Assembly (NCBI RefSeq): GCF_024298765.1
Contig: NZ_CP101210.1
Direction: 5' to 3' (one strand)
Length of the DNA stretch: 64,000 nt
Origin: Escherichia coli
Lineage (GTDB): Bacteria > Pseudomonadota > Gammaproteobacteria > Enterobacterales > Enterobacteriaceae
Within the stretch, counting starts at the first letter, position 1; each line of letters begins with the position of its first letter. A model generated the notes under the pieces. The model ran no database searches and was not told the origin of the DNA. It saw nothing but the letters and a program-made list of their open reading frames with translations. Positions 5,089 through 31,856 of the stretch are shown here, piece after piece. Both the position numbers and the translations under genes were made by a program.

Positions 5089-5868
5089 TTACGCCAGTTG
5101 TACGGACACGAACTCATCAGGGTCAGCCAGCAGCATCAGCGGTGCTGACTGAATCATGGTGAACTCACGCGCCGGATCGCCGGTGGTCACCCAGTTTTTC
5201 GGGTAACGGGCAGAGGCGTTAATGCCTTCGCGCTGTGCGTCCGCATCCTGAATGCAGCCATAGGTGCGCAGACCGCGTGCATGAGTGTTACCCAGCACCA
5301 TCGTGTTGTCCGGCAGGAAGTTCTTTTTGACGCCGTTTTCCACGTACTGTCCGGAATACACGACGATGGCCACATCGCCATACATCCCCTTATAGGACAC
5401 CGCTTTACCCAGGTCTTTCACCGCTGTCTCCAGCTCGGAATGAGAGCCGCGACGGGTATCCAGCTTCTCCTTGACGGCGTTGAAGGAACGGAACAGCGCC
5501 CAGCCTTTCGGATCAAACACGATGATATTCACCACGCCGCTGGCGTTCAGCGCGTAGGCTTCGATATCGTCGGTCGGGTCATACGTGGACTTGTCACGCT
5601 TGCTCCACTCCGTGCCGCCGGACTGCGTGATGTTGTTCGCCGCACTGCGGCCCATATCCACCTCAACCGGATCGAAGGCTTCACCGGTCATGGTGTATTT
5701 GCCCTTGAGCACGGCAGAAACTGCCTGCATCTCTTCGACCTGAGCAATGGCCAGCTCTTCGTCACGCATGTTCTGCAGGATGATGCGACGGCGGCGGTAA
5801 GCCGGGTCCGCCAGATTCTGCGGATCTTCATCCGGCAGGCGACGCAGGGTCATCTGCGGATTCACTTC
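5089..5868 (-). pseudogene. E: major capsid protein E, C-terminal ~258 codons, separated from its 5' part by a ~10.9 kb insertion
   Basis: ORF 5089..5865 begins EVNPQMTLRRLPDE..., i.e. lambda gpE from about residue 91; no start codon of its own. Confidence 0.9.
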
Positions 5869-5869
5869 A

Positions 5870-5879
5870 TGCTTGGGTT
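5870..5879. repeat. left junction direct repeat (att core copy) TGCTTGGGTT
   Basis: Identical 10-mer at 16754..16763; context atgcttgggtta vs gtgcttgggttt. Confidence 0.8.
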
Positions 5880-5955
5880 ACATGAGTCAAATATGAAAGG
5901 ATGTGAATGATTTGATTACGTTTTAGCTATAGAATTGAAATGGAAAATCCTTGAA

Positions 5956-5976
5956 TGCAATACAACGTGCAATACA
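5956..5976. repeat. GCAATACA direct repeats near left end (candidate arm-type integrase sites)
   Basis: tgcaatacaacgtgcaatacatgg; the same motif recurs at the right end. Confidence 0.45.
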
Positions 5977-6013
5977 TGGATGAAAACCATCACTCATTTA
6001 ACAAGAGGAATCT

Positions 6014-6919
6014 ATGCGCTCACCCAACAGAATGCATGAACGCTCAACATTTTATAAGTATATGTCGTTGAATACCGCGAAGATTGTTCTTGATTCATGC
6101 AGCCTTAGATGGAGTTCTCCGGTCCTATTTAATGACCCTTTTGATGTTCCAAGAGAAGTTATGCCTGGTATTAACGAAATTAATATTGGCAAAGCTTTAG
6201 CCCGCAAGTTAATAGCGGAGTTGATTACCCCCAGAGAAGACATACAAAATTTAAACCCTAGAATTAGAACAATGCTAAGTGATTTCCAAAAGTCATTTCC
6301 TTTAGGCATACCCGCAGGATTAATTGAAAGATTTCAAGAAATGGTAAACATTCCACCAGTTGGGATTGGCGCTCCTGCGGCAATACAAGAAATGAAAGAT
6401 ATCTGGCGAGGAATGCTTAATAACAGAAGGATTTTGTGTTTATCTGAGAGCCCTATAATCACTCCTATGTGGAATCACTATGCCGATAAATATAAAGGTA
6501 TAGTTATCGAATTTGATTGTGTAGACTTTCTGGATAGCGCTTGGTTAATAGCCAAACCTATGAAATACACAGATGAAATGCCTCTAACTCACACTGCTGA
6601 AGGGATGGCCGAGTTGCTTTTCATGCCAGACAATAAGTCAATTGAATATATCAATAATGAGATAATATTCATAAAAACAGAAGAATGGGCATATGAAAGA
6701 GAGTGGAGAATTTCAACCTACGCTAGGCCAAATAGCACTGGTCAATATAGCGACTTAAAATTTCACCCTTTTGAGTTAAAATCTGTAATACTTGGTCCTC
6801 TTTTTGATGCCAGCGAGTTCGATGAAGTCGCATCACTAGTTAAAATGTATCCAAGAGCGAAATTATTTAAAAGTTCATTTGGGAACGACAGAAAAATATC
6901 CATAGTACCACTACCTTAA
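6014..6919 (+). CDS. DUF2971-like hypothetical protein, AT-rich cargo
   Basis: 301 aa; motifs FYKY, LFNDPFD, EWAYEREWR recalled as DUF2971-like; codon usage visibly more AT-rich than neighbours; hairpin terminator follows. Confidence 0.6.
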   Translation: MRSPNRMHERSTFYKYMSLNTAKIVLDSCSLRWSSPVLFNDPFDVPREVMPGINEINIGKALARKLIAELITPREDIQNLNPRIRTMLSDFQKSFPLGIPAGLIERFQEMVNIPPVGIGAPAAIQEMKDIWRGMLNNRRILCLSESPIITPMWNHYADKYKGIVIEFDCVDFLDSAWLIAKPMKYTDEMPLTHTAEGMAELLFMPDNKSIEYINNEIIFIKTEEWAYEREWRISTYARPNSTGQYSDLKFHPFELKSVILGPLFDASEFDEVASLVKMYPRAKLFKSSFGNDRKISIVPLP

Positions 6920-7025
6920 AAGGTCAAATGCTTTTGACAAATAAAATCTATCGCCAGTTTTACTGGCGACTTTTAAGCAACAAAGAACCACCTAAGCACT
7001 CTTCCTACCTATGGTTTCATTTGTT

Positions 7026-7577
7026 TTAACTTCGCTGATTATCCTTGATATACCTTTCAGCCATATCTGGAATGTTATCTGAGATCTGGTAAGCTCGAAT
7101 AAATGCTTTACTGACCTCCATCTTAATGAAGTCCTGATACCGTTTTTCCATGCCAGGAAACTGTCGACAGATCGCAAGTGGAAGACTATCAATGATTGCT
7201 CCAACTTCCCCAGTTAATTTCGACAAGGCATAAGTCGCAAATGCAGTGTCAATTACCTCACCTGTTTCGCTGGCATTCTTCAGTTCCTGTGCGTCGGCCT
7301 GCGCACGCGTAAGTCGATGGCGTTCGTACTCAATAGTCCCTGGCTGGAGATCTGTCTCGCTGGCCTGCCGCAGTTCTTCAACTTCCCGGCGCAGCTTTTC
7401 GTTCTCAATTTCAGCATCCCTTTCGGCATACCATTTTATGACGGCGGCAGAGTCATAAAGCACCTCATTACCCTTGCCACCGCCTCGCAGAACGGGCATT
7501 CCCTGTTCCTGCCAGTTCTGAATGGTACGGATACTCGCACCGAAAATGTCAGCCAGCTGCTTTTTGTTGACTTCCAT
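7026..7577 (-). CDS. terminase small subunit Nu1-like; N-terminal ~100 aa identical to the prophage Nu1, C-terminal half divergent
   Basis: 183 aa; MEVNKKQLADIFGASIRTIQNWQEQG... identical to ORF 22397..22942 over the DNA-binding domain, then about half-identical. Confidence 0.85.
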   Translation of the reverse strand: MEVNKKQLADIFGASIRTIQNWQEQGMPVLRGGGKGNEVLYDSAAVIKWYAERDAEIENEKLRREVEELRQASETDLQPGTIEYERHRLTRAQADAQELKNASETGEVIDTAFATYALSKLTGEVGAIIDSLPLAICRQFPGMEKRYQDFIKMEVSKAFIRAYQISDNIPDMAERYIKDNQRS

Positions 7578-7599
7578 TGTTCATTCCACGGACAAAAAC

Positions 7600-7790
7600 A
7601 GAGAAAGGAAACGACAGAGGCCAAAAAGCTCGCTTTCAGCACCTGTCGTTTCCTTTCTTTTCAGGGGGTATTTTAAATAAAAACATTAAGTTACGACGAA
7701 GAAGAACGGAAACGCCTTAAACCGGAAAATTTTCATAAATAGCGAAAATCCGCGCGCCTGACGCCCCGTAGCCTGTCAGATCGCCGGAAA
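7600..7790 (-). other. cos-like site of the element: cosB conserved, cosN divergent
   Basis: Aligns base for base with prophage cos at ~22960..23150; the 12-nt cohesive-end sequence differs at 5 positions (aggtcgccgccc vs cgcctgacgccc on the + strand). Confidence 0.7.
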
Positions 7791-7822
7791 GGACCCGCCA
7801 GCCAGAGCGGGCCCTAATTTCA

Positions 7823-8206
7823 TCAACCAATCAGCTTATAGCGACCATCCCGTGCATTGCGGCGTACACGCTCAATCTTGAGGCATAGCGCCGCATCTGG
7901 CTTTTTTGGGACAGGTACGCGGCAATATTCAGAAGCGCGAGGAATATTATTTATCCAGTCGATCACTTCACTTAAATACCAGGCCTTACGCCCTTCCGTA
8001 ACCTGCACACGCTCCGGGAACTCTCCACTAGCCTCAAGGTTTAGCAGTGTACGCCGACTCAGGGTTGTAATTTCCATCACCTGATTCATATCAACAAGGC
8101 GCTCGCTTAAACACATTTTGTCAGCGATAGCTTTTAATTCCTCTACAGCTGGATTCGGGTACATCATTTCGGCAATTGGCTTAAGGTCATTGTAATCATT
8201 CTGCAT
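7823..8206 (-). CDS. AlpA-family DNA-binding protein with N-terminal extension
   Basis: 127 aa; C-terminal part (ITTLSRRTLLNLEASGEFPERVQVTEGRKAWYLSEVIDWI) resembles AlpA/excisionase-type wHTH. Confidence 0.6.
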   Translation of the reverse strand: MQNDYNDLKPIAEMMYPNPAVEELKAIADKMCLSERLVDMNQVMEITTLSRRTLLNLEASGEFPERVQVTEGRKAWYLSEVIDWINNIPRASEYCRVPVPKKPDAALCLKIERVRRNARDGRYKLIG

Positions 8207-8217
8207 TGTATCCCCCT

Positions 8218-8559
8218 TTACACACGAGCCAGCGGCTGAACAGAAATACCTGAGCCAACAAACGCTGCAATCTTTACTGACAGTTCTTTTACAGACTCAG
8301 GCCAGTTCAGAGCATCAACATTTAAGACACCTGTCTTATAGACCTGAGCCTGTGTTTTTTTCGCGGTGTCGATTTGTACAGCGGAAACATAAACCGCTTT
8401 ACCTACGCTCGAACCATCCCATACCACCAGTGCACCTGTTGCATCTTCCTGCATCAGTGGCGTAAATGCAGGAATTACCCCTTTATTAGCTGAAAATATC
8501 CCCAGCGTAGTCACCAGTGCTTCAGTGCCAGCCATGAGTTCAGTGTAATGAGTAGCCAT
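8218..8559 (-). CDS. head decoration protein, gpD family
   Basis: 113 aa; ...VVWDGSSVGKAVYVSAV...FVGSGISVQ parallels lambda gpD ...[17 protein letters not shown]...FAGTAISIV. Confidence 0.65.
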   Translation of the reverse strand: MATHYTELMAGTEALVTTLGIFSANKGVIPAFTPLMQEDATGALVVWDGSSVGKAVYVSAVQIDTAKKTQAQVYKTGVLNVDALNWPESVKELSVKIAAFVGSGISVQPLARV

Positions 8560-8568
8560 TGCTCCCCC

Positions 8569-9609
8569 TTAGCCAATGCGAACGGTAACAAAACGATTGA
8601 TGCGGGCCGGTATTGGCTGTGGTGCTGAATGTGTCTGCACATATTCAATAGCCGGATCACCAGGCACAATATAGTTTTTCGGTGCAAGTTCGGCTTTAGT
8701 CAGCCCCATTCGGATTAGCTCCGGATCCTGAATACCGCCATAGGCGACAATCCCCTGAAGAGCCGTATTGCCAAGCACCATCAAATCAGGATCAAGGAAA
8801 TGTTTTTCAGTTCCGTCCTCGTCGGTATAACGCCCGCTGTATACAACAATCGCAACATCGCCCATATACCCTTTAAAACTCACCGAATCACCAAGGTCTT
8901 TAAGGGCCGTTTCCAGTTCGGAATTAGAGCCACGACGGGTATCCAGAGCCTCTTTTATCGCTCTGAATGAACGGTATTTCTTCCATACATTACCGCCCAT
9001 AATGATGATATTAGTGACGCCCTCACTAAATTCTGCGTAGCTCTCAATATCATCATTTGGATCAAAAGTTTCTTTATCCTTACCTGACCACTCAGCACCG
9101 CCAGACTGAGTGATGATATTTTGTGGTTTAATATTCCAGTCCAGCTCATAACGTTCAATACCATCGCCCTCAATGATATTTTTCCCCGTTGTGATTGCCT
9201 GAACGGCAAGCCATTCAATACGTGCACGAATAGATTTAGCCTGATTTACAATCGCCTGTTTAACTTTAATATTACGCGCTCCAAAAGCATTGTATTGCTC
9301 AGGTGATACACCAGCAGGGCGCACAGCTAACTTATTTGGATCAATGCTGCTTTTCGGCTTCATATAGCCTGGACGAATTGTTTTTGATTCGTACCCTTCG
9401 TCACGTGAAACTTTACTACCCACCATAGGAGAACAAAACGCTGCAATTGGGATATTTGGATCGTCGATTGTATCAAGAATAATATCGCGCGATTCAAACA
9501 TTACCGAGCGAGTAAAAAACAAACTGGTAAACAACGCATTTAGTTGTTTTTGTACATCTACAGCATTAACCACCTGTACAAGCTGGGTAGGCGAATATAA
9601 ATCAACCAT
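8569..9609 (-). CDS. major capsid protein, gpE family, divergent paralog of prophage E
   Basis: ORF 8569..9783; likely start MVDLYSPTQL... after AAGAGG RBS; conserved blocks TQSGGAEWSGKDKETFDPNDDIESYA and TRRGSNSELETALKDLG match gpE. Confidence 0.8.
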   Translation of the reverse strand: MVDLYSPTQLVQVVNAVDVQKQLNALFTSLFFTRSVMFESRDIILDTIDDPNIPIAAFCSPMVGSKVSRDEGYESKTIRPGYMKPKSSIDPNKLAVRPAGVSPEQYNAFGARNIKVKQAIVNQAKSIRARIEWLAVQAITTGKNIIEGDGIERYELDWNIKPQNIITQSGGAEWSGKDKETFDPNDDIESYAEFSEGVTNIIIMGGNVWKKYRSFRAIKEALDTRRGSNSELETALKDLGDSVSFKGYMGDVAIVVYSGRYTDEDGTEKHFLDPDLMVLGNTALQGIVAYGGIQDPELIRMGLTKAELAPKNYIVPGDPAIEYVQTHSAPQPIPARINRFVTVRIG

Positions 9610-9826
9610 ACGCATCCTCTTTGCATTCATTAAAAATAATTGTGGATATATGCTATCACCGATATTTGTCATGCGAATACATGCAACCGAGTGCAATGTT
9701 GTATAAAGTTTTGGGATAACAACTTCAGCGCGGATAATTAGTGTTAATATCTTAACTCCCTTTGGTCGGGATTTATGTAGCATGCCGGAAAATTTATTTT
9801 TTTCCGGCCTTTTTTATTGGCAATAT

Positions 9827-10276
9827 TTAAAACGGAATATCATCTCCCCATTGCTCATTATCTCCCACTGGTGGATGGCTTCCTTGCTGATCTGCCTGTT
9901 GTTTTGCTCTGTTCAGTGCGTCAGTAGCCTGACCCTGTTGACCTTTTTTGCCGCCCGGTCGCACCGTTCGCGCACTGATTACGCTGTCTGCGATAACCTG
10001 CCAGCCCTGCCGCGTTTCACCGTTCTGTCCAGTCCACTGGCTCACCTGCATATTACCCGCCACGCTCAGGAGTTCGCCTTTGTGATGCTTTGCCAGCGCG
10101 TCGGCTTGTCTGCCAAACGCCAGGACAGATAACCACATCGTCGCCGTTCCGTCATCTGCCTGGCTGCATGGCAAAGATACCGCCATCCGTGCCAGTGTCA
10201 TGGGTGTTCCCTTGCTGGTATGTTTTACCTGTGGGTCGTCCACCAGCCGCCCGTAAGCTGCTATTTGCGCCGTCAT
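9827..10276 (-). CDS. SSB-like single-stranded DNA-binding protein
   Basis: 149 aa; OB-fold-like N-terminus and C-terminal acidic tail ending DDIPF, the SSB hallmark. Confidence 0.6.
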   Translation of the reverse strand: MTAQIAAYGRLVDDPQVKHTSKGTPMTLARMAVSLPCSQADDGTATMWLSVLAFGRQADALAKHHKGELLSVAGNMQVSQWTGQNGETRQGWQVIADSVISARTVRPGGKKGQQGQATDALNRAKQQADQQGSHPPVGDNEQWGDDIPF

Positions 10277-10287
10277 GCTGCCTGCTC

Positions 10288-10530
10288 TCAGGACTTAATA
10301 TTGATGGTTGTCACTTCCTCCGCTTCGGCAATCTCCCGTTCGGTCAGCGTGGCAAAGTTTGCAGCCGCCGTTGTCATGAATGCGCTTATCAGTTCGGGAT
10401 GTGCTTTCGCGTATCCTTCCCCGGCGTTGCGGTCTATTGCCTTAATCGCCACCCTTAGCCAGTGTTCAGCCATATCAAGGGCGCGGTAATGTGGCTTTAT
10501 ATGTTTGTTCAGTTTTCCTGATGTGTGCAT
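10288..10530 (-). CDS. hypothetical protein
   Basis: 80-aa ORF downstream of the iteron region, same strand as the replication genes. Confidence 0.4.
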   Translation of the reverse strand: MHTSGKLNKHIKPHYRALDMAEHWLRVAIKAIDRNAGEGYAKAHPELISAFMTTAAANFATLTEREIAEAEEVTTINIKS

Positions 10531-10569
10531 TTTTATTTTTACCCCCTCGTTTAAAAAGTTTTTTGTGCA

Positions 10570-10805
10570 CCACCACCTTGTCTACCTTGTCTACCTGATT
10601 AGTTATCAGGCCAGTAATGGCGCGGGTTTCAGGGAGGTAGACAGCCCCAAATAGCTGTCTACCTCATCTCTACCCGTCTCCTTACCTGTCTACAAAAATG
10701 GGTAGATAAGGTAGATAACAGGTAGACAGTGAAAAATAGTTATCTACCTGCATTAATGCATTGAAATAAAAGTATTTTATTTCAGTCAGGTAGACAAGGT
10801 AGATA
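10570..10805. repeat. iteron array GGTAGAYA (11 or more copies, both orientations): candidate replication origin
   Basis: ttgtctaccttgtctacc, ggtagacag, ctgtctacc, ggtagataaggtagataacaggtagacag, ttatctacc, ggtagacaaggtagataa; immediately downstream of the primase-helicase gene. Confidence 0.75.
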
Positions 10806-10819
10806 ACCATTGCCATTTT

Positions 10820-12571
10820 TTATAAAAACGCATCGCAATCATCAGTAGTCGTTGCGTTGGTCTGCGTGACTCCCTTAACTTTTCGCGTAATATATTCATA
10901 TCCGTAAACTTTCGCCGCTGACCTCATAGCCTTTCCGAACTCATTCACGCTCAAACATTTCCCCTTTCCTGTATATGCCATGAAGGCCATATAGACACGG
11001 TAAAGGCTGTTTCTGGTCGTGTACTTCACGGTGTCACCACCACCGCCCATCATTAGCCCACGAGCTTCCTCCAGAAACTCCAGCGCCGCGCAAAGCTCAA
11101 CAACCGGATCCGTTTGCTGCTTTATTGCCAGAGCTTCATCACCGTCACGCTGTTCCAGTAATAAAGCCCGTGCCTTTTCAGGGTCAGCAAAATTAGCCAG
11201 CAAGCGGCGGATAATTACGGGGATTTCTGCCGCTATCTTTTCCGGTAATTCCTTGTCTTTTTCGTCCTCCCTTACAATGTTGTCGAACCGGAAAATCACC
11301 CGACGGCGTGACACACCTCCGGCCCGTTCGGTAAAGATCATCGGGTCGTTATTGGTTGCCAGTACCACCGCCCTTATTATCGTCGTGAATCGCTTCTCAT
11401 ATTTCGGGTTAATTTCAACGGGATCGCCTCCCGTGATTTTCTTGATGCCCGTGCCTTCCCCCGTATATTTCGGCTGATCGGCAAGGACGATAAGACGACT
11501 CCCGACAACCTGCGCACGCCCTCCTGCATCATCGAGTGATGTCATCTCTGCGCTTACGGTGTTCTGTTTGCCAGCAAGCAGGGTGGCAATATGGGTAAAT
11601 GTACTCTTACCGCTTCCCCCGTCTCCGGTGGCCTCAATGAACATCTGCCAGTCGTACCGGTTCGCCATAATCATGTACAGCGCGGCACATATACGCATCA
11701 TCTTGCGCGGGTCTTTTCCGGCTGCGTGCTCAAGCCATTTATGAAAGTTTGGCGCGTTATCGCGGATGTTCTCCCCTGGTGCTGGTGGCGTGTACTCAAT
11801 GCCGTTGTGCGTGGTGATCCAGTTCTCCGGCGTGTGCGGGGAAAATTCCCCCGTTTTCAGGTCAAGCGCACCATTGGCGAACGGCAGCAAATCGCCGGAC
11901 GGCTCGCCCATTGGTTCGGCAATAACTTTTAACGCTTCAACGGCGTTATTGATCACGCGTTTGCTGAAAGTGGCCCTGTGCTCTGAATAGATCGCCACCA
12001 TTTCGCGGCTCAGCTCCATTGTGCTGATCGGACACCATACCCCGCCGCGCCATACGTGAACGATTTCACTTTCCGGATGCACACAAACGCCATCAAAGCG
12101 CTCGGCAAGCAGCTGCGCGCGCTCACTGTCTGCCATCTGTGAAAGTTGCGCCTTTTGCTTCGTCGGAAGATTAAGCACCAGGCTTTCCCCACGCTCGCAT
12201 TCCTCTTTGAGTCGCGGCAACTGGTCGGATAAATCCACTGGGCTGATGTCAGTAATCCCCGCGTATTCGTGTACGGTCTTCACTCCAGCCACAGCCAGTA
12301 ACGTAACAATCTGCGTCATGCTGTGCTCTGTGATATGTCCTGCGCGGTAAACACGCACACACTGACGATCTTCATCAATGATCCGGTAATCGGTGATGTT
12401 TTTCAGTTGCTCATCAGCCAACACGACAGGCGGCACATCGTCGGCGGCAATATGTTTACCCGCCCATTCCTGCCACTCTTTCGCATGGCTCCACGCATCA
12501 CTACCTGCAAAGATGATTATCTCTGTCAGTCTGTCGCGTGGCTGTTTTTTTAAGTTCGGTGCCAGTTTCAT
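10820..12571 (-). CDS. primase-helicase (P4 alpha / D5-type replication protein)
   Basis: 583 aa; Walker A GDGGSGKST in the C-terminal half; domain layout as in satellite and plasmid primase-helicases. Confidence 0.75.
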   Translation of the reverse strand: MKLAPNLKKQPRDRLTEIIIFAGSDAWSHAKEWQEWAGKHIAADDVPPVVLADEQLKNITDYRIIDEDRQCVRVYRAGHITEHSMTQIVTLLAVAGVKTVHEYAGITDISPVDLSDQLPRLKEECERGESLVLNLPTKQKAQLSQMADSERAQLLAERFDGVCVHPESEIVHVWRGGVWCPISTMELSREMVAIYSEHRATFSKRVINNAVEALKVIAEPMGEPSGDLLPFANGALDLKTGEFSPHTPENWITTHNGIEYTPPAPGENIRDNAPNFHKWLEHAAGKDPRKMMRICAALYMIMANRYDWQMFIEATGDGGSGKSTFTHIATLLAGKQNTVSAEMTSLDDAGGRAQVVGSRLIVLADQPKYTGEGTGIKKITGGDPVEINPKYEKRFTTIIRAVVLATNNDPMIFTERAGGVSRRRVIFRFDNIVREDEKDKELPEKIAAEIPVIIRRLLANFADPEKARALLLEQRDGDEALAIKQQTDPVVELCAALEFLEEARGLMMGGGGDTVKYTTRNSLYRVYMAFMAYTGKGKCLSVNEFGKAMRSAAKVYGYEYITRKVKGVTQTNATTTDDCDAFL

Positions 12572-12867
12572 TTTTTGCCCCTGAATGCGTTAATCATGCT
12601 TTTCATTTTCTGGATGTTTCCCCGCGCTTTTTCCCTGCTGATGGGCTTACTGCGGGGTGCGGCATATACCAGGGAAAAATCACGCCGGAACTGATAAACA
12701 GGCATCACGCAGTCATAGCTATACCCCTCACGACGGTAAGTGATGCGCCGTTCTGCCACGCCTTTAATCGTTACCGTGCCGCCGTATTTATCGCGGTAAA
12801 TATCGCCGTTCATAAATTCAGGCCGAGCGGGGCCGCTGGCAATAAAGCCAGAATTTTTCATTTCCAT
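12568..12867 (-). CDS. hypothetical protein
   Basis: 99-aa ORF, abuts the primase-helicase start. Confidence 0.4.
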   Translation of the reverse strand: MEMKNSGFIASGPARPEFMNGDIYRDKYGGTVTIKGVAERRITYRREGYSYDCVMPVYQFRRDFSLVYAAPRSKPISREKARGNIQKMKSMINAFRGKK

Positions 12868-12884
12868 ATTATTTATTCCTCGAC

Positions 12885-13106
12885 TTAACTCGACTTATTT
12901 GATAGCTGGGCACTATTTATTGCGTCATTGAGTTTTTCTGCTGCTTCATCAATAAGTGACAACAGGCCATAAGCAATATTTGCATCTTCATTGTCATTTA
13001 TGCAATCAAGCCACATATTTAATATTGCTTTTGCTGAATTATTTAAAGTTAATGAACTTTCTGCACATGCTAACAATTTAAAAAAGACTTCCCGTTCTGT
13101 ATTCAT
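12885..13106 (-). CDS. hypothetical protein
   Basis: 73-aa ORF in a tightly packed small-gene operon. Confidence 0.4.
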   Translation of the reverse strand: MNTEREVFFKLLACAESSLTLNNSAKAILNMWLDCINDNEDANIAYGLLSLIDEAAEKLNDAINSAQLSNKSS

Positions 13107-13298
13107 TTAATCCCCCACCAGCTTACTTTCTTCCTCAATCAAAAAACTAGCGACACTTCCCGAAAGACGCGCCAGTAGGCTCGCCAGTGCGGATATATCA
13201 GCATCTGTAATTTTGTTCGGGTATACCTCAAGAAGGCGGCAAATAATTTCTGTCTGGTGCGCACGTTCAGCGGCTTCGTGTAATGTGATTTCCTGCAT
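13107..13298 (-). CDS. hypothetical protein
   Basis: 63-aa ORF; its stop abuts the next ORF. Confidence 0.4.
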   Translation of the reverse strand: MQEITLHEAAERAHQTEIICRLLEVYPNKITDADISALASLLARLSGSVASFLIEEESKLVGD

Positions 13299-13483
13299 TA
13301 ATGCACCTCTTTTAATTCATACACTGCTGAAATAATGACTTGTGATAAGCCATATTCTGATGATTCGCTTCTCACCGCAGCAATAGCCGTCTGAACATTA
13401 ACAGCCTTCACATTCTGAGCGATACCAATTGTGTGGCCTATTGGGTTAACAGCTCGGGCAAATACACGGAAGGTTTTAAGCAT
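13298..13483 (-). CDS. hypothetical protein
   Basis: 61-aa ORF, first gene of the leftward operon. Confidence 0.4.
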   Translation of the reverse strand: MLKTFRVFARAVNPIGHTIGIAQNVKAVNVQTAIAAVRSESSEYGLSQVIISAVYELKEVH

Positions 13484-13863
13484 GACTCACTCCCTGGCGG
13501 ATTTTTGCAGCGAATACAGCAACACAACCGGACGGGCAACGGCTACGCGCTTCGCGTTCCGTCCAGGCGGTTACGTGGATGATTTGAGATTCTCCGGCAC
13601 TCAGTGCCAGAAAACGCCACACAAAGGCCGTTTGTGTGTGTACAAGGTGTGGTATATGATTTACAGCAACCATAACGGCTCCTAGTTTACGTTGTTGGTT
13701 AGACGCCCCGTATGTGTTCCCAGCACTGCGGGGCGTTGCTCTTTGTATTTCAACAATCCTTTCGGTGTGTTTCATGTTATGAGCGCATGAAACACACGTC
13801 AAGGCTTTTTGTATTTCTTTTTTTGTGTATACTGAAACACACCGATGATTAGGAGTTTCAGAA

Positions 13864-14169
13864 ATGGCAACGGCTAACAAAAACGCAAAATCACAACTGA
13901 CAACTGTCAGAGTCCCACTAGATGTTATGCAAGGGATGGAATCCGTTAAGCTGGACGGTGAAAGCAATGCCGGATTTATCGTAACCGCCATGCGCGGTGA
14001 AATCGCCCGCCGCCAGGCAGAAGGAAGCGGAGAAAATCCCCTCGTGTCTTCACTGGATGCCTTAGCTAAGGTCGAACAAATCGGCATCAAGGCAGCGGAG
14101 GAAATCGGGCAACTCGTAGCCGTCGCTCGTGAAGAACTCCAGCGGCGTAAAGCCAAAGAATCTGAATAA
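13864..14169 (+). CDS. putative ribbon-helix-helix transcriptional regulator
   Basis: 101 aa; AGGAG RBS; TVRVPLDVMQGMESV...NAGFIVTAMRGEI fits a beta-strand plus two helices; divergent from the small-gene operon. Confidence 0.5.
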   Translation: MATANKNAKSQLTTVRVPLDVMQGMESVKLDGESNAGFIVTAMRGEIARRQAEGSGENPLVSSLDALAKVEQIGIKAAEEIGQLVAVAREELQRRKAKESE

Positions 14170-14519
14170 TTAGTATCAGCGCCGTGATGTGAGTAACTAC
14201 GGCGCATTGCTATGTAAATACTGGCAATAAACAGAAAAGGTAGTTCTACTCCGAATAATTTTATCTGACACTACTCCTGAACTAACATGCGCTTATCTTA
14301 CAGGATATAAATATAAATCCATAAAATCACGATTAAATAAAGTCGCTCCAAACATAAACCACACCCAACGCTTAACAAGATAGCAACAAACAGGTAAATA
14401 ACTTGCAGAAATATTTATCGCAAGGATTATCATTATTAATGACAAATCACTTTACCAAGTCATTCCCCTCTCTTATCATAAAGAGAAAGTAATAAATAAG
14501 TTAAGGGAGTTAGAATGCT

Positions 14520-15056
14520 ATGAATCTAAAAAAAATAGCCACAAACACAAAAAACAAGATAACAGAAACATTTAATAAACTTATATTAGAGGCATCTAAA
14601 ACCCCCACACAAGATGAAATTAAAATACTTGAGAGAAGGAGTAAGAAGTTTAATTACTCCTTTTTCTCATACGCAGTCACAGGAGCTATAATAGTTTTTT
14701 GCTCTCAACCATTAATTAAATACGCAAACCCAATACTTATTTTATTGAGTGGTCTGTTACTGTCTATCATCATTATCATTCTCAGAATGATTTATATTTC
14801 ACAAGCGAATGCATCATGGACAACCAAAAAACGCTCACATGTACTAGTTCATTTTCTTTCTGCATGTTTCATAGCATCAACATTGACGTTGCTATATCAG
14901 GCTTACGATAATAACATCACACACAAATTGTACTGTAAAAATATACAACAACTTATTGAAAAAAGGATAAAAACAGAAAAAAACATCAGCATATTCAGTG
15001 GGATGCAATGCACCCCGGTATATGATTACTCTTTATTTGGATTTAATCTCTTATAA
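14520..15056 (+). CDS. hypothetical membrane protein, AT-rich cargo
   Basis: 178 aa; three hydrophobic segments (AVTGAIIVFCSQPLI, ILILLSGLLLSIIIIIL, VLVHFLSACFIASTLTLL); GGGAG RBS; AT-rich. Confidence 0.55.
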   Translation: MNLKKIATNTKNKITETFNKLILEASKTPTQDEIKILERRSKKFNYSFFSYAVTGAIIVFCSQPLIKYANPILILLSGLLLSIIIIILRMIYISQANASWTTKKRSHVLVHFLSACFIASTLTLLYQAYDNNITHKLYCKNIQQLIEKRIKTEKNISIFSGMQCTPVYDYSLFGFNLL

Positions 15057-15067
15057 AGAATGTTATT

Positions 15068-15101
15068 ACTGATTTGAGTACAAATTCTCAAATCAGTAAT
15101 T
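15068..15101. terminator. perfect 13-bp inverted repeat hairpin between convergent genes
   Basis: ttactgatttgag-N8-ctcaaatcagtaa. Confidence 0.5.
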
Positions 15102-15125
15102 CATAATATTTTATTCTGAGATAAT

Positions 15126-15353
15126 TTAAACTACCCACTCACCTCGAATCCATGCCTGCACTTCTGAAAGACGATATGCAACAGCAGTGGAACCAATCTT
15201 GATCCGCTTAGGAAATTTTCCTTCCTTCTCCAGCTTCCAGCGTGTGCTGTTCGCAAGAGTGGTTAGCTCCCGACATTCTTTCTCACGGATCATTCGGTCA
15301 ATGTTAGGAATGTACTCCAGACCCTTTTTATCAACAATTGCCATTTTTTTCAT
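15126..15353 (-). CDS. alpA: AlpA-family regulator/excisionase-like protein
   Basis: ORF 15126..15362; ...LTTLANSTRWKLEKEGKFPKRIKIGSTAVAYRLSEVQAWI typical of AlpA; directly follows int. Confidence 0.65.
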   Translation of the reverse strand: MKKMAIVDKKGLEYIPNIDRMIREKECRELTTLANSTRWKLEKEGKFPKRIKIGSTAVAYRLSEVQAWIRGEWVV

Positions 15354-15354
15354 G

Positions 15355-16590
15355 TTAACCAACCTTTTGTTTGAGGATTGTCACTTTTGAATCAGCACCT
15401 GCGATGCTATTGAGATATGTAGTCCAGAGTTCCAGAGCATCCAGTTTTTTAGCCATAAACTTACTCCGGTTGTAAACACCTGCCACGCCAGGTAGCGCAT
15501 GGCCTAACAGTTGTTCTACTACATAAAATTCAACACCGAGATCACTTAGATGAGTAGATAGCGTTCTTCTAAGGTCGTGTAGTGACCATTGTTTTTCATG
15601 GCCCAAACGTTTACCGATTTTCCCCCCAATCTTGCTTACGCTTTCTCTAATTCGCAGACTTCCCAGCACATAACCAGTATGTTTTGTCTCTTCGTGAACA
15701 TCCGTTACCCACTGTCGTAGAATTTCAGGTACTGGTCTGACGATTTCAACACCAGTTTTTGAGTGATCTTTTGGTACAGTCCAAACCCAACTTTCGAGAT
15801 CCCATTCGCTCCATTCTGATAATCGGGCTTCACTCATTCGACATCCAAATACTGTACAAAGCACAAACATTTTTCGCGTGTATTCAGACATTAGTTTTAA
15901 ATCAGGCTCGACAAAAATTGCCTTCCAGAGCTGGCCGAGTTCGGCTTCATCCAGAACCCGATCCCGCTTACCTGCAATCTGCCCCACATCACTCATGCGC
16001 AAATCCTTTAAAGCATCACACGTCGCGTACTGGCGTACCCGACAAAAACGAAGAGCTAATTTAGTGTCAGAAAAAACATACGCCGCCATAACTGGTGCAT
16101 TACGTTTAATTCGGTCAAAACAGTCCAGCCATTCATATAGGTGAGTGTCATTTACGGGCAAATGACCGATATAGGGAAAGATATGCTTTCGAAATCTGCC
16201 AAGCGTTACAGCATGAGTTTTACGACGCACCTTACAGTAATTTTCATACCAGTAATTTAGTGCATCCTCCACTGTAACTGGCTTTAAGCGTTCTTCAGCC
16301 TGAATCTTAATCTGGATACGCGGATCACGTTTGTCAGCCAACCAACCACGGCACTCGTCGCGCTTTTCCCTTGCCTGTTTGAGTGACATATCAGGATATT
16401 TACCCAACGTTAGCCAGACCGGAGCAGCCCGGCCACCTGCTAACCTGTAGAAGAAAACAAAGCTCACAGCCCCTTTAGTACTCACACGAATAGAAAGCCC
16501 CTTTCCATCAGCAATGGTGATCTGCTTTTCTCTGGGTTTCCCCAGATATCCTTTAAGCGCTTTGTCGCTCAGTTTGTTCTCGCCAGCCAT
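15355..16590 (-). CDS. int: tyrosine integrase, P4-like
   Basis: ORF 15355..16641; probable start MAGENKLSDKALKG...; C-terminal catalytic region with HDLRRT and GH motifs. Confidence 0.85.
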   Translation of the reverse strand: MAGENKLSDKALKGYLGKPREKQITIADGKGLSIRVSTKGAVSFVFFYRLAGGRAAPVWLTLGKYPDMSLKQAREKRDECRGWLADKRDPRIQIKIQAEERLKPVTVEDALNYWYENYCKVRRKTHAVTLGRFRKHIFPYIGHLPVNDTHLYEWLDCFDRIKRNAPVMAAYVFSDTKLALRFCRVRQYATCDALKDLRMSDVGQIAGKRDRVLDEAELGQLWKAIFVEPDLKLMSEYTRKMFVLCTVFGCRMSEARLSEWSEWDLESWVWTVPKDHSKTGVEIVRPVPEILRQWVTDVHEETKHTGYVLGSLRIRESVSKIGGKIGKRLGHEKQWSLHDLRRTLSTHLSDLGVEFYVVEQLLGHALPGVAGVYNRSKFMAKKLDALELWTTYLNSIAGADSKVTILKQKVG

Positions 16591-16605
16591 TTTTAGCCCC
16601 AAAAA

Positions 16606-16640
16606 GCAATACAAGCTGCAATACAGAGATGATTGCAACA
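16606..16640. repeat. GCAATACA repeats near right end (candidate arm-type integrase sites)
   Basis: aagcaatacaagctgcaatacagagatgattgcaacaca between int start and the right junction. Confidence 0.45.
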
Positions 16641-16752
16641 CACAGATAACGAGGAAAATTCAGTGAAAGCACCAGATAAACTTATTCTTTATTATCAAAA
16701 GATTAAGTGTAAAAACCAGCAACTACACGAAAGCCTCAGAAAGCCATGCTAA

Positions 16753-16998
16753 GTGCTTGGGTTTGACATATCCCGGCGTAAATTCAGAGGTGGAGCCGCC
16801 ACGGGAACGGATAACCTCACCGGAAACAATCGGCGAAACGTACAGCGCCATGTTTACCAGTCCCGGAATTTGTGAGAGATAGACTTTCTCCGTAGTGAAG
16901 GGATAGCTCTCACGGAAAAAGAGACGCAGAAACAGCGGATCAAACTTAAATTTCTGCTCATTTGCCGCCAGCAGCTGGGCGGTTGTGTACATCGACAT
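16753..16998 (-). pseudogene. E: major capsid protein E, N-terminal ~90 codons; frame runs into the insertion and stops at 16723
   Basis: ORF 16723..17025: MSMYTTAQLLAANEQKFKFDPLF...GYVKPKH then LAWLSEAFV* from element DNA. Confidence 0.9.
16754..16763. repeat. right junction direct repeat (att core copy) TGCTTGGGTT
   Basis: Identical 10-mer at 5870..5879. Confidence 0.8.
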
Positions 16999-29971: not shown

Positions 29972-30262
29972 TCATCTTTTAACTCCATATACCGCCAATA
30001 CCCGTTTCATCGCGGCACTCTGGCGACACTCCTTAAAAATCAGGTTCGTGCTCATCTTTCCTTCCCGTTCTTCCTTGGTAGCAAACCGGTAATACACCGT
30101 TCGCCAGACCTTACCTTCGATAACCAGAAGACCTGCCCGTGCCATTTTAGCCGCGGCCTGATTTATGCTGGTTACTGTTGCGCCTGTTAGCGCGGCAACG
30201 TCCGGCGCACAGAAGCTATTATGCGTCCCCAGGTAATGAATAATTGCCTCTTTGCCCGTCAT
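29972..30262 (-). CDS. ren: Ren
   Basis: 96 aa MTGKEAIIHYLGTHNSFCAPDVAALTGATVTSINQ..., lambda Ren. Confidence 0.9.
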   Translation of the reverse strand: MTGKEAIIHYLGTHNSFCAPDVAALTGATVTSINQAAAKMARAGLLVIEGKVWRTVYYRFATKEEREGKMSTNLIFKECRQSAAMKRVLAVYGVKR

Positions 30263-30960
30263 ACACTTGCTCCTTTCAGTCCGAACTTAGCTTTGATTTC
30301 TGCGATCTTCGCCAGAGCCTGTGCACGATTTAGAGGTCTACCGCCCATGACAGGAAGTTGTTTTACTGGTTCAGGGATCGCCTCACCACGGTTAATTCTC
30401 GCAGTCATATGGACAAGCTCATCTGCGGCCTTACGGCGTAATTCCGCATCAGTAAGCGCATTGGCCCGCATGTTCTGATACAGGTTGGTAACCAGCCAGT
30501 AGTGCGCGTTTGATTTCCACGGATAAGACTCCGCATCCGGATACAGGCCTCGCTTCCGGCAATACTCGTAAACCATATCAACCAGCTCGCTGACGTTTGG
30601 CAGTCCGGCGATAACGGATGCTTCTTCCCGGCACCATGCAACAAACTGCCCGGGTGATGGCAGAAATGGTCGATTCTGCCGACGGGCTACGCGCATTCCT
30701 GCGTTAACCTGTTCCATTGTGGTGATCCCGTTTTCCCGGAAAGCCAGCACCCACTGGCGGCGGATTTCGTTCAGTTCGTTCTGGTCCCGGTTAGCCAGGC
30801 TCGCCGGGAAAGTTGCCAGTAACTGGCTGAACACACCATTGATGATCTGCGCTACCTGTTGTACCTGCGGCTTTTCGTCGTACTGTTCCGGCATGTTGTT
30901 GGCGATCCGACGCATCTGCTCACGGTCAAAGTTAACCATCTGTGCGGCGATGTTTTTCAT
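30259..30960 (-). CDS. P: replication protein P (DnaB loader)
   Basis: 233 aa MKNIAAQMVNFDREQMRRIANNMPEQYDEK..., lambda P. Confidence 0.95.
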   Translation of the reverse strand: MKNIAAQMVNFDREQMRRIANNMPEQYDEKPQVQQVAQIINGVFSQLLATFPASLANRDQNELNEIRRQWVLAFRENGITTMEQVNAGMRVARRQNRPFLPSPGQFVAWCREEASVIAGLPNVSELVDMVYEYCRKRGLYPDAESYPWKSNAHYWLVTNLYQNMRANALTDAELRRKAADELVHMTARINRGEAIPEPVKQLPVMGGRPLNRAQALAKIAEIKAKFGLKGASV

Positions 30961-31856
30961 AAATCCACCCCGTAAATCCAGTCAGTGTTTGTCAGGTCGA
31001 GTTTTGGTTTGCTGGCTGTCACGCCTGCCTGTTGCTTGTTACGGTTGATTTCGAGCTGGGTCCACTTGTCGCGGAGTTTGGCCGGACTCAGCACGTTACC
31101 GGACCAGAAGTTGTCCTGGCAGGCCCAGCGGAAAAGCACACACATATCGCGGTGGTTACGTCCGTCACGTTCACGCATCAGGCGGATATCGTTAGCCCAC
31201 CCAGCAAAATTCGGTTTTCTGGCTGATGGTGCGATAGTCTTCACCATGTCAAACATCCACTCTGCGGCGGTCAGGTCTTCTGCTGTCCCCCACTTGCTGC
31301 CGCTCTGAATTGCAGCATCCGGTTTAACCACAGAAAGATCGTTTTCTGGCTGGTCAGAGGATTCGCCAGAATTCTCTGACGAATAATCTTTTCTTTTTTC
31401 TTTTGTAATAGTGTCTTTTGTGTCCCCCTGTTTTGAGGGATAGCAATCCCCCAATTTGAGGGATGTTTTATCCCTCGTTTTAGGGGATTGTCCCTCGTTT
31501 TGAGGGATACACCATTCTGAGATGTTTTTATTTGGTCCAAACATGCCGCCTTGCTGCTTGATAATATTCATTCTGACGAGTTCTAACTTGGCTTCATTGC
31601 ACCGTTTGACAGGTAACTTTGTAATCTCGCTAAGTTGAGAATCGGTGATTCTGTCCATTGGTTTATTCCACCCATAGGTTTTACGCAGAATGGCAAGCAG
31701 CACTTTAAACTGTCGCTTGGTCAGATCTGCGCCCGAATAAGCCTCAAGCAGCATATTTGATAGTCTGGCGTAACCATCATCGAGATCTGCCACATTACGC
31801 TCCTGTCCGGCAAAGTTACCTCTGCCGAAGTTGAGTATTTTTGCTGTATTTGTCAT
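30957..31856 (-). CDS. O: replication initiator O
   Basis: 299 aa MTNTAKILNFGRGNFAGQERNVADLDDGYARLSNMLLEAY..., lambda O. Confidence 0.95.
   Translation of the reverse strand: MTNTAKILNFGRGNFAGQERNVADLDDGYARLSNMLLEAYSGADLTKRQFKVLLAILRKTYGWNKPMDRITDSQLSEITKLPVKRCNEAKLELVRMNIIKQQGGMFGPNKNISEWCIPQNEGQSPKTRDKTSLKLGDCYPSKQGDTKDTITKEKRKDYSSENSGESSDQPENDLSVVKPDAAIQSGSKWGTAEDLTAAEWMFDMVKTIAPSARKPNFAGWANDIRLMRERDGRNHRDMCVLFRWACQDNFWSGNVLSPAKLRDKWTQLEINRNKQQAGVTASKPKLDLTNTDWIYGVDL
31425..31520 (-). repeat. ori-lambda iterons inside gene O
   Basis: Four ~19-bp repeats tccctcaaaacgaggga / tcccctaaaacgaggga / tccctcaaattggggga variants, followed by an AT-rich tract. Confidence 0.85.

Follow-up and report, generated by a model that had tools for sequence, protein, structure and literature searches.

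The segment at 9827-12867 of the DNA analysed here, a 64,000-nucleotide stretch of Escherichia coli sequence that we call the window, is in our estimate (probability about 0.87) the replication zone of a Gram-negative PICI of the EcCICFT073 family, helper-embedded in gene E of a lambdoid prophage, whose initiator would melt an iteron origin. The module is real but ordinary: the satellite type is already known, and the replication of a close relative has been shown experimentally. A match to the Pri-Rep/iteron module was found in 1,760 of 5,426 E. coli genomes.

The element and its genes

The satellite is bounded by a 10-bp att core, TGCTTGGGTT, present at both ends (5870-5879 and 16754-16763), and interrupts gene E at K-P-K-H; the PICI genes and gene E are all on the minus strand. 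Its main features, apart from the initiator and the origin, are the following.

5870-16763, minus strand: whole helper-embedded PICI, 10.9 kb, inside the lambda-like capsid gene E
9827-10276, minus strand: SSB of 149 aa with the C-terminus WGDDIPF (TIGR00621, PHROG 44)
10288-10530, minus strand: ORF of 80 aa, the first gene after the origin (PHROG 1231, E 8.5e-46)
12568-12867, minus strand: DUF4222 gene, with a 4-bp overlap with the initiator start
15126-15362, minus strand: AlpA (PF05930)
15355-16641, minus strand: int

With int, alpA and pri-rep in a size range of about 10-20 kb, and with no tail or lysis genes found between the att cores by annotation and family scans, the element has the composition of a Gram-negative PICI, and the split gene E with a core at both ends places it in the capE site group of helper-embedded PICIs. 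The gene set comprises int, AlpA, an Icd-like gene, DUF4222, the initiator, the origin, the SSB and a capsid and a decoration gene of its own; these last two are the only head genes, and the full head module of cf-PICIs (protease, portal, connectors, HNH, TerS/TerL) is not present. The genes for int, AlpA, the Icd-like protein, initiator, SSB, capsid and decoration all lie on the minus strand, and the organisation is unidirectional despite two genes annotated on the opposite strand, one of the YlcI/YnfO family and one hypothetical. The helper prophage has an O gene (TIGR01610) and a P-like gene of its own at 30259-31856; these are outside the PICI, which is therefore not a lambda O/P-ori replicon. 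A preliminary description of this DNA had proposed a satellite replicon that was not lambda-derived, and both proposals are borne out by the gene content, by the att core that bounds the element inside gene E and by the separate O/P of the prophage. The module thus explains the occurrence of non-lambda replication genes amid a lambda-like late operon.

The 80-aa ORF is syntenic in EcCICFT073 and in a cf-PICI, and its leader and RBS (10531-10565) are conserved in the alignment of relatives. The SSB scored 65.5 bits against NCBIfam TIGR00621 (cutoff 53.95) and ends in DDIPF, as had been noted before; this tip matches the C-terminal tip of the host SSB. DUF4222 accompanies every helicase allele, and was ruled out as a Cnr analogue for want of sequence similarity to P4 Cnr/ORF106. 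An Rfam scan of the whole element detected no RNA family, and megablast against a phage collection gave no match. A plasmid life-style suggested by matches to plasmid records was likewise rejected, the records being chromosomal fragments with PICIs or cf-PICIs and with clcB, mlc and pntAB nearby.

The initiator and the iteron array

The following features of the initiator gene and of the adjoining gap were located.

10820-12571, minus strand: initiator/helicase Pri-Rep, P4 alpha-like, 583 aa (PHROG 864, E 5.6e-162)
12182-12571, minus strand: N-terminal domain, aa 1-130, alpha/beta fold resembling TOPRIM, probably without catalytic activity
11729-12118, minus strand: D5_N domain, aa 152-281 (Pfam PF08706, E 1.2e-14)
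11324-11629, minus strand: SF3-type helicase ATPase core, aa 315-416 (Pfam DUF5906, E 1.3e-9; TIGR01613)
11603-11626, minus strand: sequence encoding Walker A, GDGGSGKS, read from the sequence
10838-11113, minus strand: C-terminal winged-helix origin-binding domain, aa 487-578 (PDB 1KA8, E 2e-7 to 2e-8)
10931-10945, minus strand: candidate specificity patch N543-E-F-G-K547, covarying with iteron position 8 and placed by prediction where the recognition helix begins
Starts 10579, 10588, 10656 and 10741, minus strand: exact iterons
Starts 10636, 10701, 10710, 10721, 10789 and 10798, plus strand: exact iterons
Starts 10667 and 10687, minus strand: degenerate iterons
10749-10788: AT-rich stretch of 40 bp, 22.5% GC, with inverted (opposed) iterons on both sides
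10611-10632: GC-rich non-iteron block of 22 bp inside the origin, gene-sense CTGAAACCCGCGCCATTACTGG

Pri-Rep aligned with residues 321-762 of P4 alpha (41% identity), the similarity being confined to the helicase and winged-helix origin-binding parts, and gave no alignment to alpha residues 1-320. It shares with alpha-type proteins the SF3 helicase and the C-terminal winged helix but lacks their DnaG-like N-terminal primase. The ATPase region also matched SaPI5 PriRep (PDB 7OLA, aa 194-441 of Pri-Rep, E 4e-14), and Pfam Pox_D5 matched aa 517-575. The winged helix resembles what we take to be the origin-binding domain of P4 alpha, namely the 100-aa C-terminal fragment in PDB 1KA8, which was deposited as 'putative P4-specific DNA primase'.

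Of the name primase-helicase given to this protein in the preliminary description, the second half stands: the helicase domains, including the Walker A motif that had been pointed out, and the origin-binding domain are clear. The first half is not supported, as no Pfam primase domain was detected in Pri-Rep and the TOPRIM acidic residues (EGYATA, DxD) are absent, invariant FAG and RAG replacing E-G and DxD. We consider the label 'primase' doubtful because the TOPRIM-like N-terminus, a domain common to three unrelated helicase types, is without the catalytic acidic residues (catalytic Glu and DxD motif). Judged by its sequence, the Pri-Rep of the present allele may be no primase at all and its N-terminus a decayed TOPRIM module, and the annotation 'DNA primase family protein' carried by thousands of E. 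coli genomes probably overstates the role of the protein.

From the stop codon that ends the 583-aa ORF to the start of the 80-aa ORF, the non-coding gap measures 289 bp (10531-10819) and, since the genes are on the minus strand, the iterons in it lie downstream (3') of the 583-aa gene. When both strands of the 64,000 bp were counted, exact GGTAGAYA occurred 10 times, always inside 10579-10805, while shuffled versions of the window averaged 1.95 matches and never exceeded 6, and the chance expectation for a 227-bp stretch was about 0.007. Two further copies with one mismatch, at 10667-10674 (GGTAGAGA) and 10687-10694 (TGTAGACA), bring the total to 12. There was no second iteron cluster in the 64-kb window, P4-ori-like ones included, nor any other 300-bp stretch with at least four copies. 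Three tandem pairs have a spacing of 9 bp (10579/10588, 10701/10710 and 10789/10798); the pairs at the two ends together make up an inverted repeat of 21 nt, and palindromic units of 30 nt each occupy 10635-10664 and 10720-10749. These data uphold the earlier statements that the array follows the 583-aa gene directly and has copies in both orientations with tandem pairs; the count of at least 11 copies given with them is correct if degenerate copies are included and too high for exact matches.

In 52 distinct downstream sequences of relatives, the GGTAGA cores were at least 98% conserved in most copies and the spacers drifted, with indels owing to which two central copies align poorly. In the same 52 sequences, conservation of the 22-bp GC-rich block at 10611-10632 reached 90% or more at nearly all positions; at the one less conserved position the window has C where most relatives have G. 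Missing from the origin of the RepA-type allele (see below), this block may, on its conservation, be a further part of the origin that acts in cis and has so far gone unrecognised. A scan of the gap for a consensus (sigma-70-like) promoter or a terminator yielded neither. The ssDNA folding z-score was strongly negative (-8), a value discarded as evidence in that it merely restates the inverted iterons, and a 14-nt repeat, CCTGCATTAATGCA (10747 and 13292), was set aside as roughly at chance level and not conserved in EcCICFT073.

We infer from these features that the initiator would act as a self-loading helicase of four parts (TOPRIM-like N-domain, D5_N, SF3 ATPase and C-terminal winged helix), the last of which would read the 8-bp iterons, with a consensus written R-GGTAGA-Y-A, that are packed into the 289-bp gap adjoining the 3' end of the initiator gene. 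Once the initiator had bound the opposed groups of iterons that flank 10749-10788, the AT-rich 40 bp, which is the likely melting site, would open, and helicase hexamers would load and unwind the DNA. Synthesis would be carried out by the host replisome, possibly recruited via the satellite SSB, and, if there is no intrinsic priming, host DnaG would prime, perhaps brought in through the DDIPF tip of that SSB.

Covariation of the winged helix with the iterons

The patch in the winged helix agreed with iteron position 8 at 80 of the 81 loci (the single exception being L057): V-N-x-F-G-K went with A at this position in 54 loci, and V-A-x-F-S-K with G in 26. Each combination was found on both N-terminal backgrounds, and between L032 and L034 the patch is the sole difference in the last 125 aa. 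Moreover, a change of the protein patch goes along with a concerted change of position 8 in all iteron copies, giving for example the GGTAGANG arrays of the L028 origin, and this concerted change argues for continuing selection for binding. As no more than about 120-370 bp separate the patch from the iterons, linkage alone could yield part of the covariation. The assignment of the patch to the start of the recognition helix is predicted from a poor AF2 model of the C-terminal domain (pLDDT 56, 6-sequence alignment), used for secondary-structure order alone, together with general fold topology and the 1KA8 homology. The patch (N543/E544/G546 versus A/D-E/S) and iteron position 8 (A versus G) may constitute a minimal specificity code. 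A RepA-type helicase allele with the same synteny carries unrelated repeats, AAGTGAGR, in the same position.

Relatives and competing explanations

The origin identity proposed in the preliminary description is supported by EcCICFT073, whose Pri-Rep (WP_000761835) is 81% identical over its full length, with an identical N-x-F-G-K patch, and whose GGTAGAYA iterons lie immediately 3' of pri-rep around an AT-rich stretch; the two regions align. The window thus has both a PICI Pri-Rep homologue and an iteron array with a flanked AT-rich stretch. With the pri-ori segment of EcCICFT073, a temperature-sensitive plasmid was still maintained at 44 C, whereas pri-delta-ori and delta-pri-ori clones gave no plasmid maintenance (Fillol-Salom et al. 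2018, PMC6092414), and the iterons are also contained in primer EcoCFT073-pri-4c in the supplement of that work. The cloning assay suggested in the preliminary description thus has its precedent in a close homologue. The order DUF4222 - pri-rep - ori - small ORF - SSB - (PerC) - capsid - decoration is shared, although PerC is absent from the window, identity over the N-terminal 130 aa falls to about 22-70%, and integration is in a prophage capsid gene in the window versus the chromosomal attC in EcCICFT073. Beyond this element, the replication module of a cf-PICI in L003 shows about 85% nucleotide identity, but that element has a full head set. In SaPIs, the Reps bind through their C-terminal winged helix to iterons that follow rep on its 3' side and surround an AT-rich centre (Qiao et al. 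2022, PMC9371898), and opposed iterons on either side of such a centre are common to SaPI and window. The ATPase core of SaPI Rep/PriRep is homologous (7OLA, E 4e-14), but the sequences are distant, the iterons measure 5-6 bp versus 8 bp in the window, the primase is separate or fused as a prim-pol type, and the host is Gram-positive.

The element in the window also resembles HE-PICI Eco567.11capE (Tommasini, Mageeney and Williams 2023, PMC10111431), a match made at the level of the published description: both are PICIs of about 11 kb that have a capsid gene of their own, interrupt a lambda-like gene E in the orientation of the late genes and show an identity block of 10 bp. The composite is located beside ybhC/gal in the near-identical strain 13P477T, versus icd for 11capE. 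The latter is said to have 'its own primase and origin', the origin not being dissected there, and its post-excision replication was barely detectable, with attP:attB near 1 in two of three inductions; in addition, the composite replicated before satellite excision (PMC10111431). With such a ratio, vigorous native autonomous replication is unproven and the satellite may be copied mostly passively in the helper. On this basis, and with a helper that has its own O and P, it could be argued that the intact module is a relic or auxiliary replicon that contributes little, the lambda O/P replicon doing most of the copying and the iterons being retained for another purpose or through recent descent. 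We consider this unlikely, given that the initiator ORF is intact, that the iteron cores are kept while the spacers drift in the 52 sequences, that the module matches in so many E. coli genomes, and that position 8 changes in concert with the patch, implying selection for binding. Furthermore, the third 11capE induction gave a ratio of 1.6-1.9 (PMC10111431), and deletion of pri-rep in EcCICFT073 lowered transfer roughly 100-fold (Table 1, PMC6092414).

The array could instead consist mainly of transcriptional operators for the orf80-ssb-capsid genes, bound by the initiator or another regulator, with the origin elsewhere. It does lie directly upstream of orf80, the leader of which is conserved, and autoregulation is common in iteron-binding initiators. 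We nonetheless find this quite improbable, since no sigma-70-like promoter was found in the gap and no other iteron cluster in the window. Transcription of Gram-negative PICIs is moreover described as running in one direction from the alpA end, and the corresponding EcCICFT073 region is required in cis for plasmid replication (PMC6092414).

A comparison with P4 raises a further alternative, in which the array would be a crr, that is, a cis-acting enhancer, and the origin would be separate and several kilobases away. Alpha binds the type-1 repeats of P4, as annotated in its GenBank entry and generally held. According to the P4 record, these 8-bp repeats in crr are placed directly 3' of alpha, in both orientations and with tandem pairs 9 bp apart, as in the window, while ori is 4.5 kb from crr, in contrast to the one cis site here. 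Alpha and Pri-Rep are homologous in the helicase and in the origin-binding winged helix (41% identity; 1KA8), and the octamer CATTACTG is common to the window and P4 ori. However, the iterons read GGTGAACA in P4 versus GGTAGACA in the window, with two positions different, and a 130-aa TOPRIM-like domain stands in place of the 320-aa primase region of alpha. The element is not a P4-like satellite with ori plus crr, annotation and family scans having revealed none of cnr, sid, psu and delta. Since the 12 copies form a single cluster and the EcCICFT073 pri-ori fragment is sufficient alone (PMC6092414), a split origin is very improbable.

Finally, parC/parS sites also carry arrays of short repeats in both orientations, but a reading of the array as a centromere-like partition site, or as a packaging site built from protein-binding repeats, is barely credible here, with no partition genes found by annotation and family scans in the 10.9-kb element, PICIs reported without a plasmid state, and repeats that switch along with the helicase allele.

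The repeats and the gene beside them are therefore best read as the replicon of a described satellite family, which mainly closes the question of their nature. Three points go beyond what PMC6092414 and PMC10111431 describe, namely a Pri-Rep that is not a primase, the specificity code and the 22-bp cis element; taken jointly we hold them tentatively, at somewhat under even odds. The conserved non-iteron block offers a concrete target for mutagenesis in a PICI origin. The covariation amounts to a natural two-allele experiment on iteron reading by winged-helix initiators of the P4 alpha and PICI types and, if the specificity code is true, near-identical E. coli PICI replicons would be split into non-cross-reacting groups, which may be informative on the replicon incompatibility of co-resident satellites.

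A replicon within a helper-embedded PICI

The preliminary description read this region as a satellite replication module, and in outline this was correct: the feature is a PICI Pri-Rep/ori replicon within a published helper-embedded PICI (HE-PICI) type, real and already known. The 10.9-kb element (5870-16763), whose small regulator is AlpA (PF05930), is inserted precisely in gene E of a lambdoid prophage and brings its own E-like capsid and D-like decoration genes. It is bounded as follows.

5870-5879 and 16754-16763: 10-bp att core TGCTTGGGTT, at the ends of the element

Both capsid fragments of the window keep the reading frame of lambda gpE, with their junction at K-P-K-H. At 30259-31856 the helper prophage has its own genes for lambda O (TIGR01610) and a P-like protein. 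The configuration matches that published for 11capE. The PICI capsid ORF (8569-9783) is open for 404 codons (346 aa in the RefSeq annotation), and over 135 nt it shares 72% identity with the interrupted E gene of the prophage (5357-5491); in the 11capE paper (PMC10111431), the region equivalent to the att site is described as diverged.

Many E. coli chromosomes carry the same 3.2 kb at 99.7% identity: 1,760 of 5,426 complete genomes had a match, which in 211 of them spans 80% or more of the query. In one matching genome, RefSeq annotates an 11-kb block that separates two pieces of a lambda-like major capsid gene in an otherwise ordinary lambdoid late operon; its genes, nearly all on one strand, are an integrase, an HTH regulator, an Icd-like gene, small ORFs, DUF4222, a "DNA primase family protein", a hypothetical protein, SSB, major capsid and head decoration. 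A near-identical strain (13P477T, NZ_CP019273 2020000-2062000) is collinear with about 23600-64000 of the window, and its prophage also has iss (increased serum survival). Whereas the 11capE/50icd composite lies at icd, the prophage-PICI composite of 13P477T adjoins ybhC and mod/gal genes. A plasmid life-style of the replicon was discarded, since CP088587 and the other PLSDB matches, although deposited as E. coli plasmids, are chromosomal fragments with a cf-PICI flanked by clcB, mlc and pntAB.

The iteron array as a putative initiator-binding origin

The array and the genes around it are arranged as follows.

9827-10276: SSB, C-terminal end GDDIPF
10288-10530: 80-aa ORF, whose start bounds the gap
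10531-10819: 289-bp intergenic gap filled by the array, from the stop of the 583-aa ORF to the start of the 80-aa ORF
10611-10632: 22-bp GC-rich non-iteron block inside the origin, gene-sense CTGAAACCCGCGCCATTACTGG
10635-10664 and 10720-10749: 30-nt palindromic units
10749-10788: AT-rich stretch (40 bp, 22.5% GC), with opposed iteron sets on either side
10820-12571, minus strand: initiator ORF (583 aa), whose stop codon bounds the gap
11603-11626, minus strand: Walker A motif GDGGSGKS

The repeats lie directly downstream of the initiator gene, which encodes a Walker A motif, as had been described, and the protein noted as SSB-like with a DDIPF end passes the NCBIfam cutoff for SSB. The claim of at least 11 copies of GGTAGAYA held for the presence of the repeats, their two orientations and their tandem pairs, but only ten are exact. 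With both strands searched, the 64-kb window held no further exact match, and all ten lie inside 10579-10805; dinucleotide-preserving shuffles gave a mean of 1.95 and a maximum of 6. A one-mismatch scan added two degenerate copies at 10667-10674 (GGTAGAGA) and 10687-10694 (TGTAGACA), bringing the total to 12, and disclosed no other 300-bp stretch with at least four copies in the window. Tandem pairs 9 bp apart occur at 10579/10588, 10701/10710 and 10789/10798, the two outer ones forming a 21-nt inverted repeat, and the start-to-start distances (9, 48, 20, 11, 20, 14, 9, 11, 20, 48, 9) are nearly mirror-symmetric.

This layout matches that of the P4 record, where the type-1 repeats of crr (8 bp, TGTTCACC), immediately 3' of alpha, likewise point both ways and include tandem pairs at a 9-bp distance; the window iteron (TGTCTACC) differs from them at two positions. 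The footprint set comprised 52 distinct downstream sequences from 80 IMG/VR loci, EcCICFT073 (the PICI of CFT073) and one cf-PICI. Across these 52, most copies had a GGTAGA core conserved to 98% or more, and the spacers were variable, with indels. The 22-bp block was also highly conserved in all relatives with the allele of the window (52 distinct), but the RepA-type origin lacks it; one octamer, CATTACTG, is common to the block and the P4 ori (9341-9348 of the P4 record). The 14-nt CCTGCATTAATGCA, which includes a 12-bp palindrome, occurs once in the AT-rich stretch (10747-10760) and once at the upstream ORF junction (13292-13305); it was rejected as a meaningful repeat, being roughly at chance level and not conserved in EcCICFT073.

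Two iteron classes were found in the relatives, R-GGTAGA-Y-A (A at position 8 in 93% of sites) and R-GGTAGA-N-G (G at position 8 in 81-90%), and a C-terminal patch of the protein predicted the class: V-N-[DE]-F-G-K went with A in 54 loci and V-A-[DE]-F-S-K with G in 26. Both patch types were found on both N-terminal backgrounds. In one relative (L028) the first ~440 residues are 92-100% identical to the window protein, yet its patch is of the A/S type and its iterons are GG, and the last 125 residues of two others (L032 and L034) differ solely in NDFG versus AEFS. In a low-confidence model (pLDDT 56) the patch is predicted at the start of the helix before a beta-hairpin; the helix ahead of the hairpin is the usual recognition helix of winged-helix domains. 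The covariation must be read with linkage in mind, as patch and array are only ~120-370 bp apart, but without selection for binding it is difficult to account for some ten copies changing in concert. The rule had one exception in 81 loci, an IMG/VR metagenome contig (L057) that combines an A-E-F-S patch with YA-type iterons. Its C-terminal residues (TDECDAFL) are like those of the N/G class, pointing either to a crossover in the last ~35 codons or to a chimeric assembly. In the RepA-type helicase allele, where the synteny (DUF4222 ... small ORF - SSB) is the same, the equivalent gap holds six copies of the unrelated AAGTGAGR, and GGTAGA was not found in it. As far as sequence comparison can tell, the layout, footprint, covariation and allele swap thus support the iterons as initiator binding sites.

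The cloning test of replication that had been proposed has already been done on EcCICFT073 (CFT073 1,377,930-1,388,654), a close homologue: its pri-ori clone keeps a temperature-sensitive plasmid at 44 C, while pri-delta-ori and delta-pri-ori do not, and deletion of pri-rep lowers transfer about 100-fold (PMC6092414). Its gene order is the same as in the window element, the downstream gaps aligned iteron for iteron, and its Pri-Rep and the window protein share 81% identity and the N-x-F-G-K patch. A deletion primer in the supplement of that work (Fillol-Salom et al. 2018, PMC6092414) contains CTCAGGTAGACAGGGTAGACAGCCATTGC.

Initiator domains and a possible mode of replication

Pfam assigned three domains to the initiator.

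aa 152-281: D5_N
aa 315-416: DUF5906, the SF3 helicase core
aa 517-575: Pox_D5

By BLASTP, the protein is 41% identical to the helicase and origin-binding parts of P4 alpha (residues 321-762); the N-terminal part of alpha (residues 1-320), in which the P4 primase activity resides, gave no alignment. Sequence searches of the PDB matched aa 194-441 to 7OLA (SaPI5 PriRep) and aa 487-578 to 1KA8, a 100-aa C-terminal alpha fragment deposited as a "putative P4-specific DNA primase", which we take to be the alpha origin-binding domain. The predicted fold of aa 1-130 (12182-12571) is TOPRIM-like, with the near-invariant family motifs IIFAGSDAW after strand 1 and YRAG after strand 3. In our mapping, which is not a residue-level structural alignment, the domain lacks the catalytic Glu and the DxD motif: TOPRIM primases have E-G-x-x-D and D-x-D where this family has the FAG and RAG motifs, and P4 alpha has AADRDLSGDG at the second place, where the family has YRAG. 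The same N-domain joins SF3/D5-type, RepA/AAA_25-type or DUF927-type helicase halves in other E. coli PICI alleles. The label "primase" is doubtful. Of the "primase-helicase" initially described, the helicase stood and the primase was not well supported; a role as helicase and origin-binding protein is well supported.

We propose that the winged-helix domain would bind the iterons, that the opposed sets flanking 10749-10788 would promote melting, and that SF3 hexamers would then self-load, as has been proposed for SaPI Reps (PMC9371898). Synthesis would be finished by the host replisome, with priming probably by host DnaG, given a TOPRIM-like domain without catalytic residues. Host SSB recruits replication proteins via its DDIPF tip, and the satellite SSB, with the same tip, is a plausible recruiter of them. 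In two of three inductions of 11capE, the attP:attB ratio after excision was about 1, and in the third it was 1.6-1.9; replication of the composite preceded satellite excision (PMC10111431). A satellite embedded in its helper may therefore replicate only modestly on its own. The patch/iteron covariation and the conserved non-iteron block add a little to the published accounts of these elements (PMC6092414 and PMC10111431).
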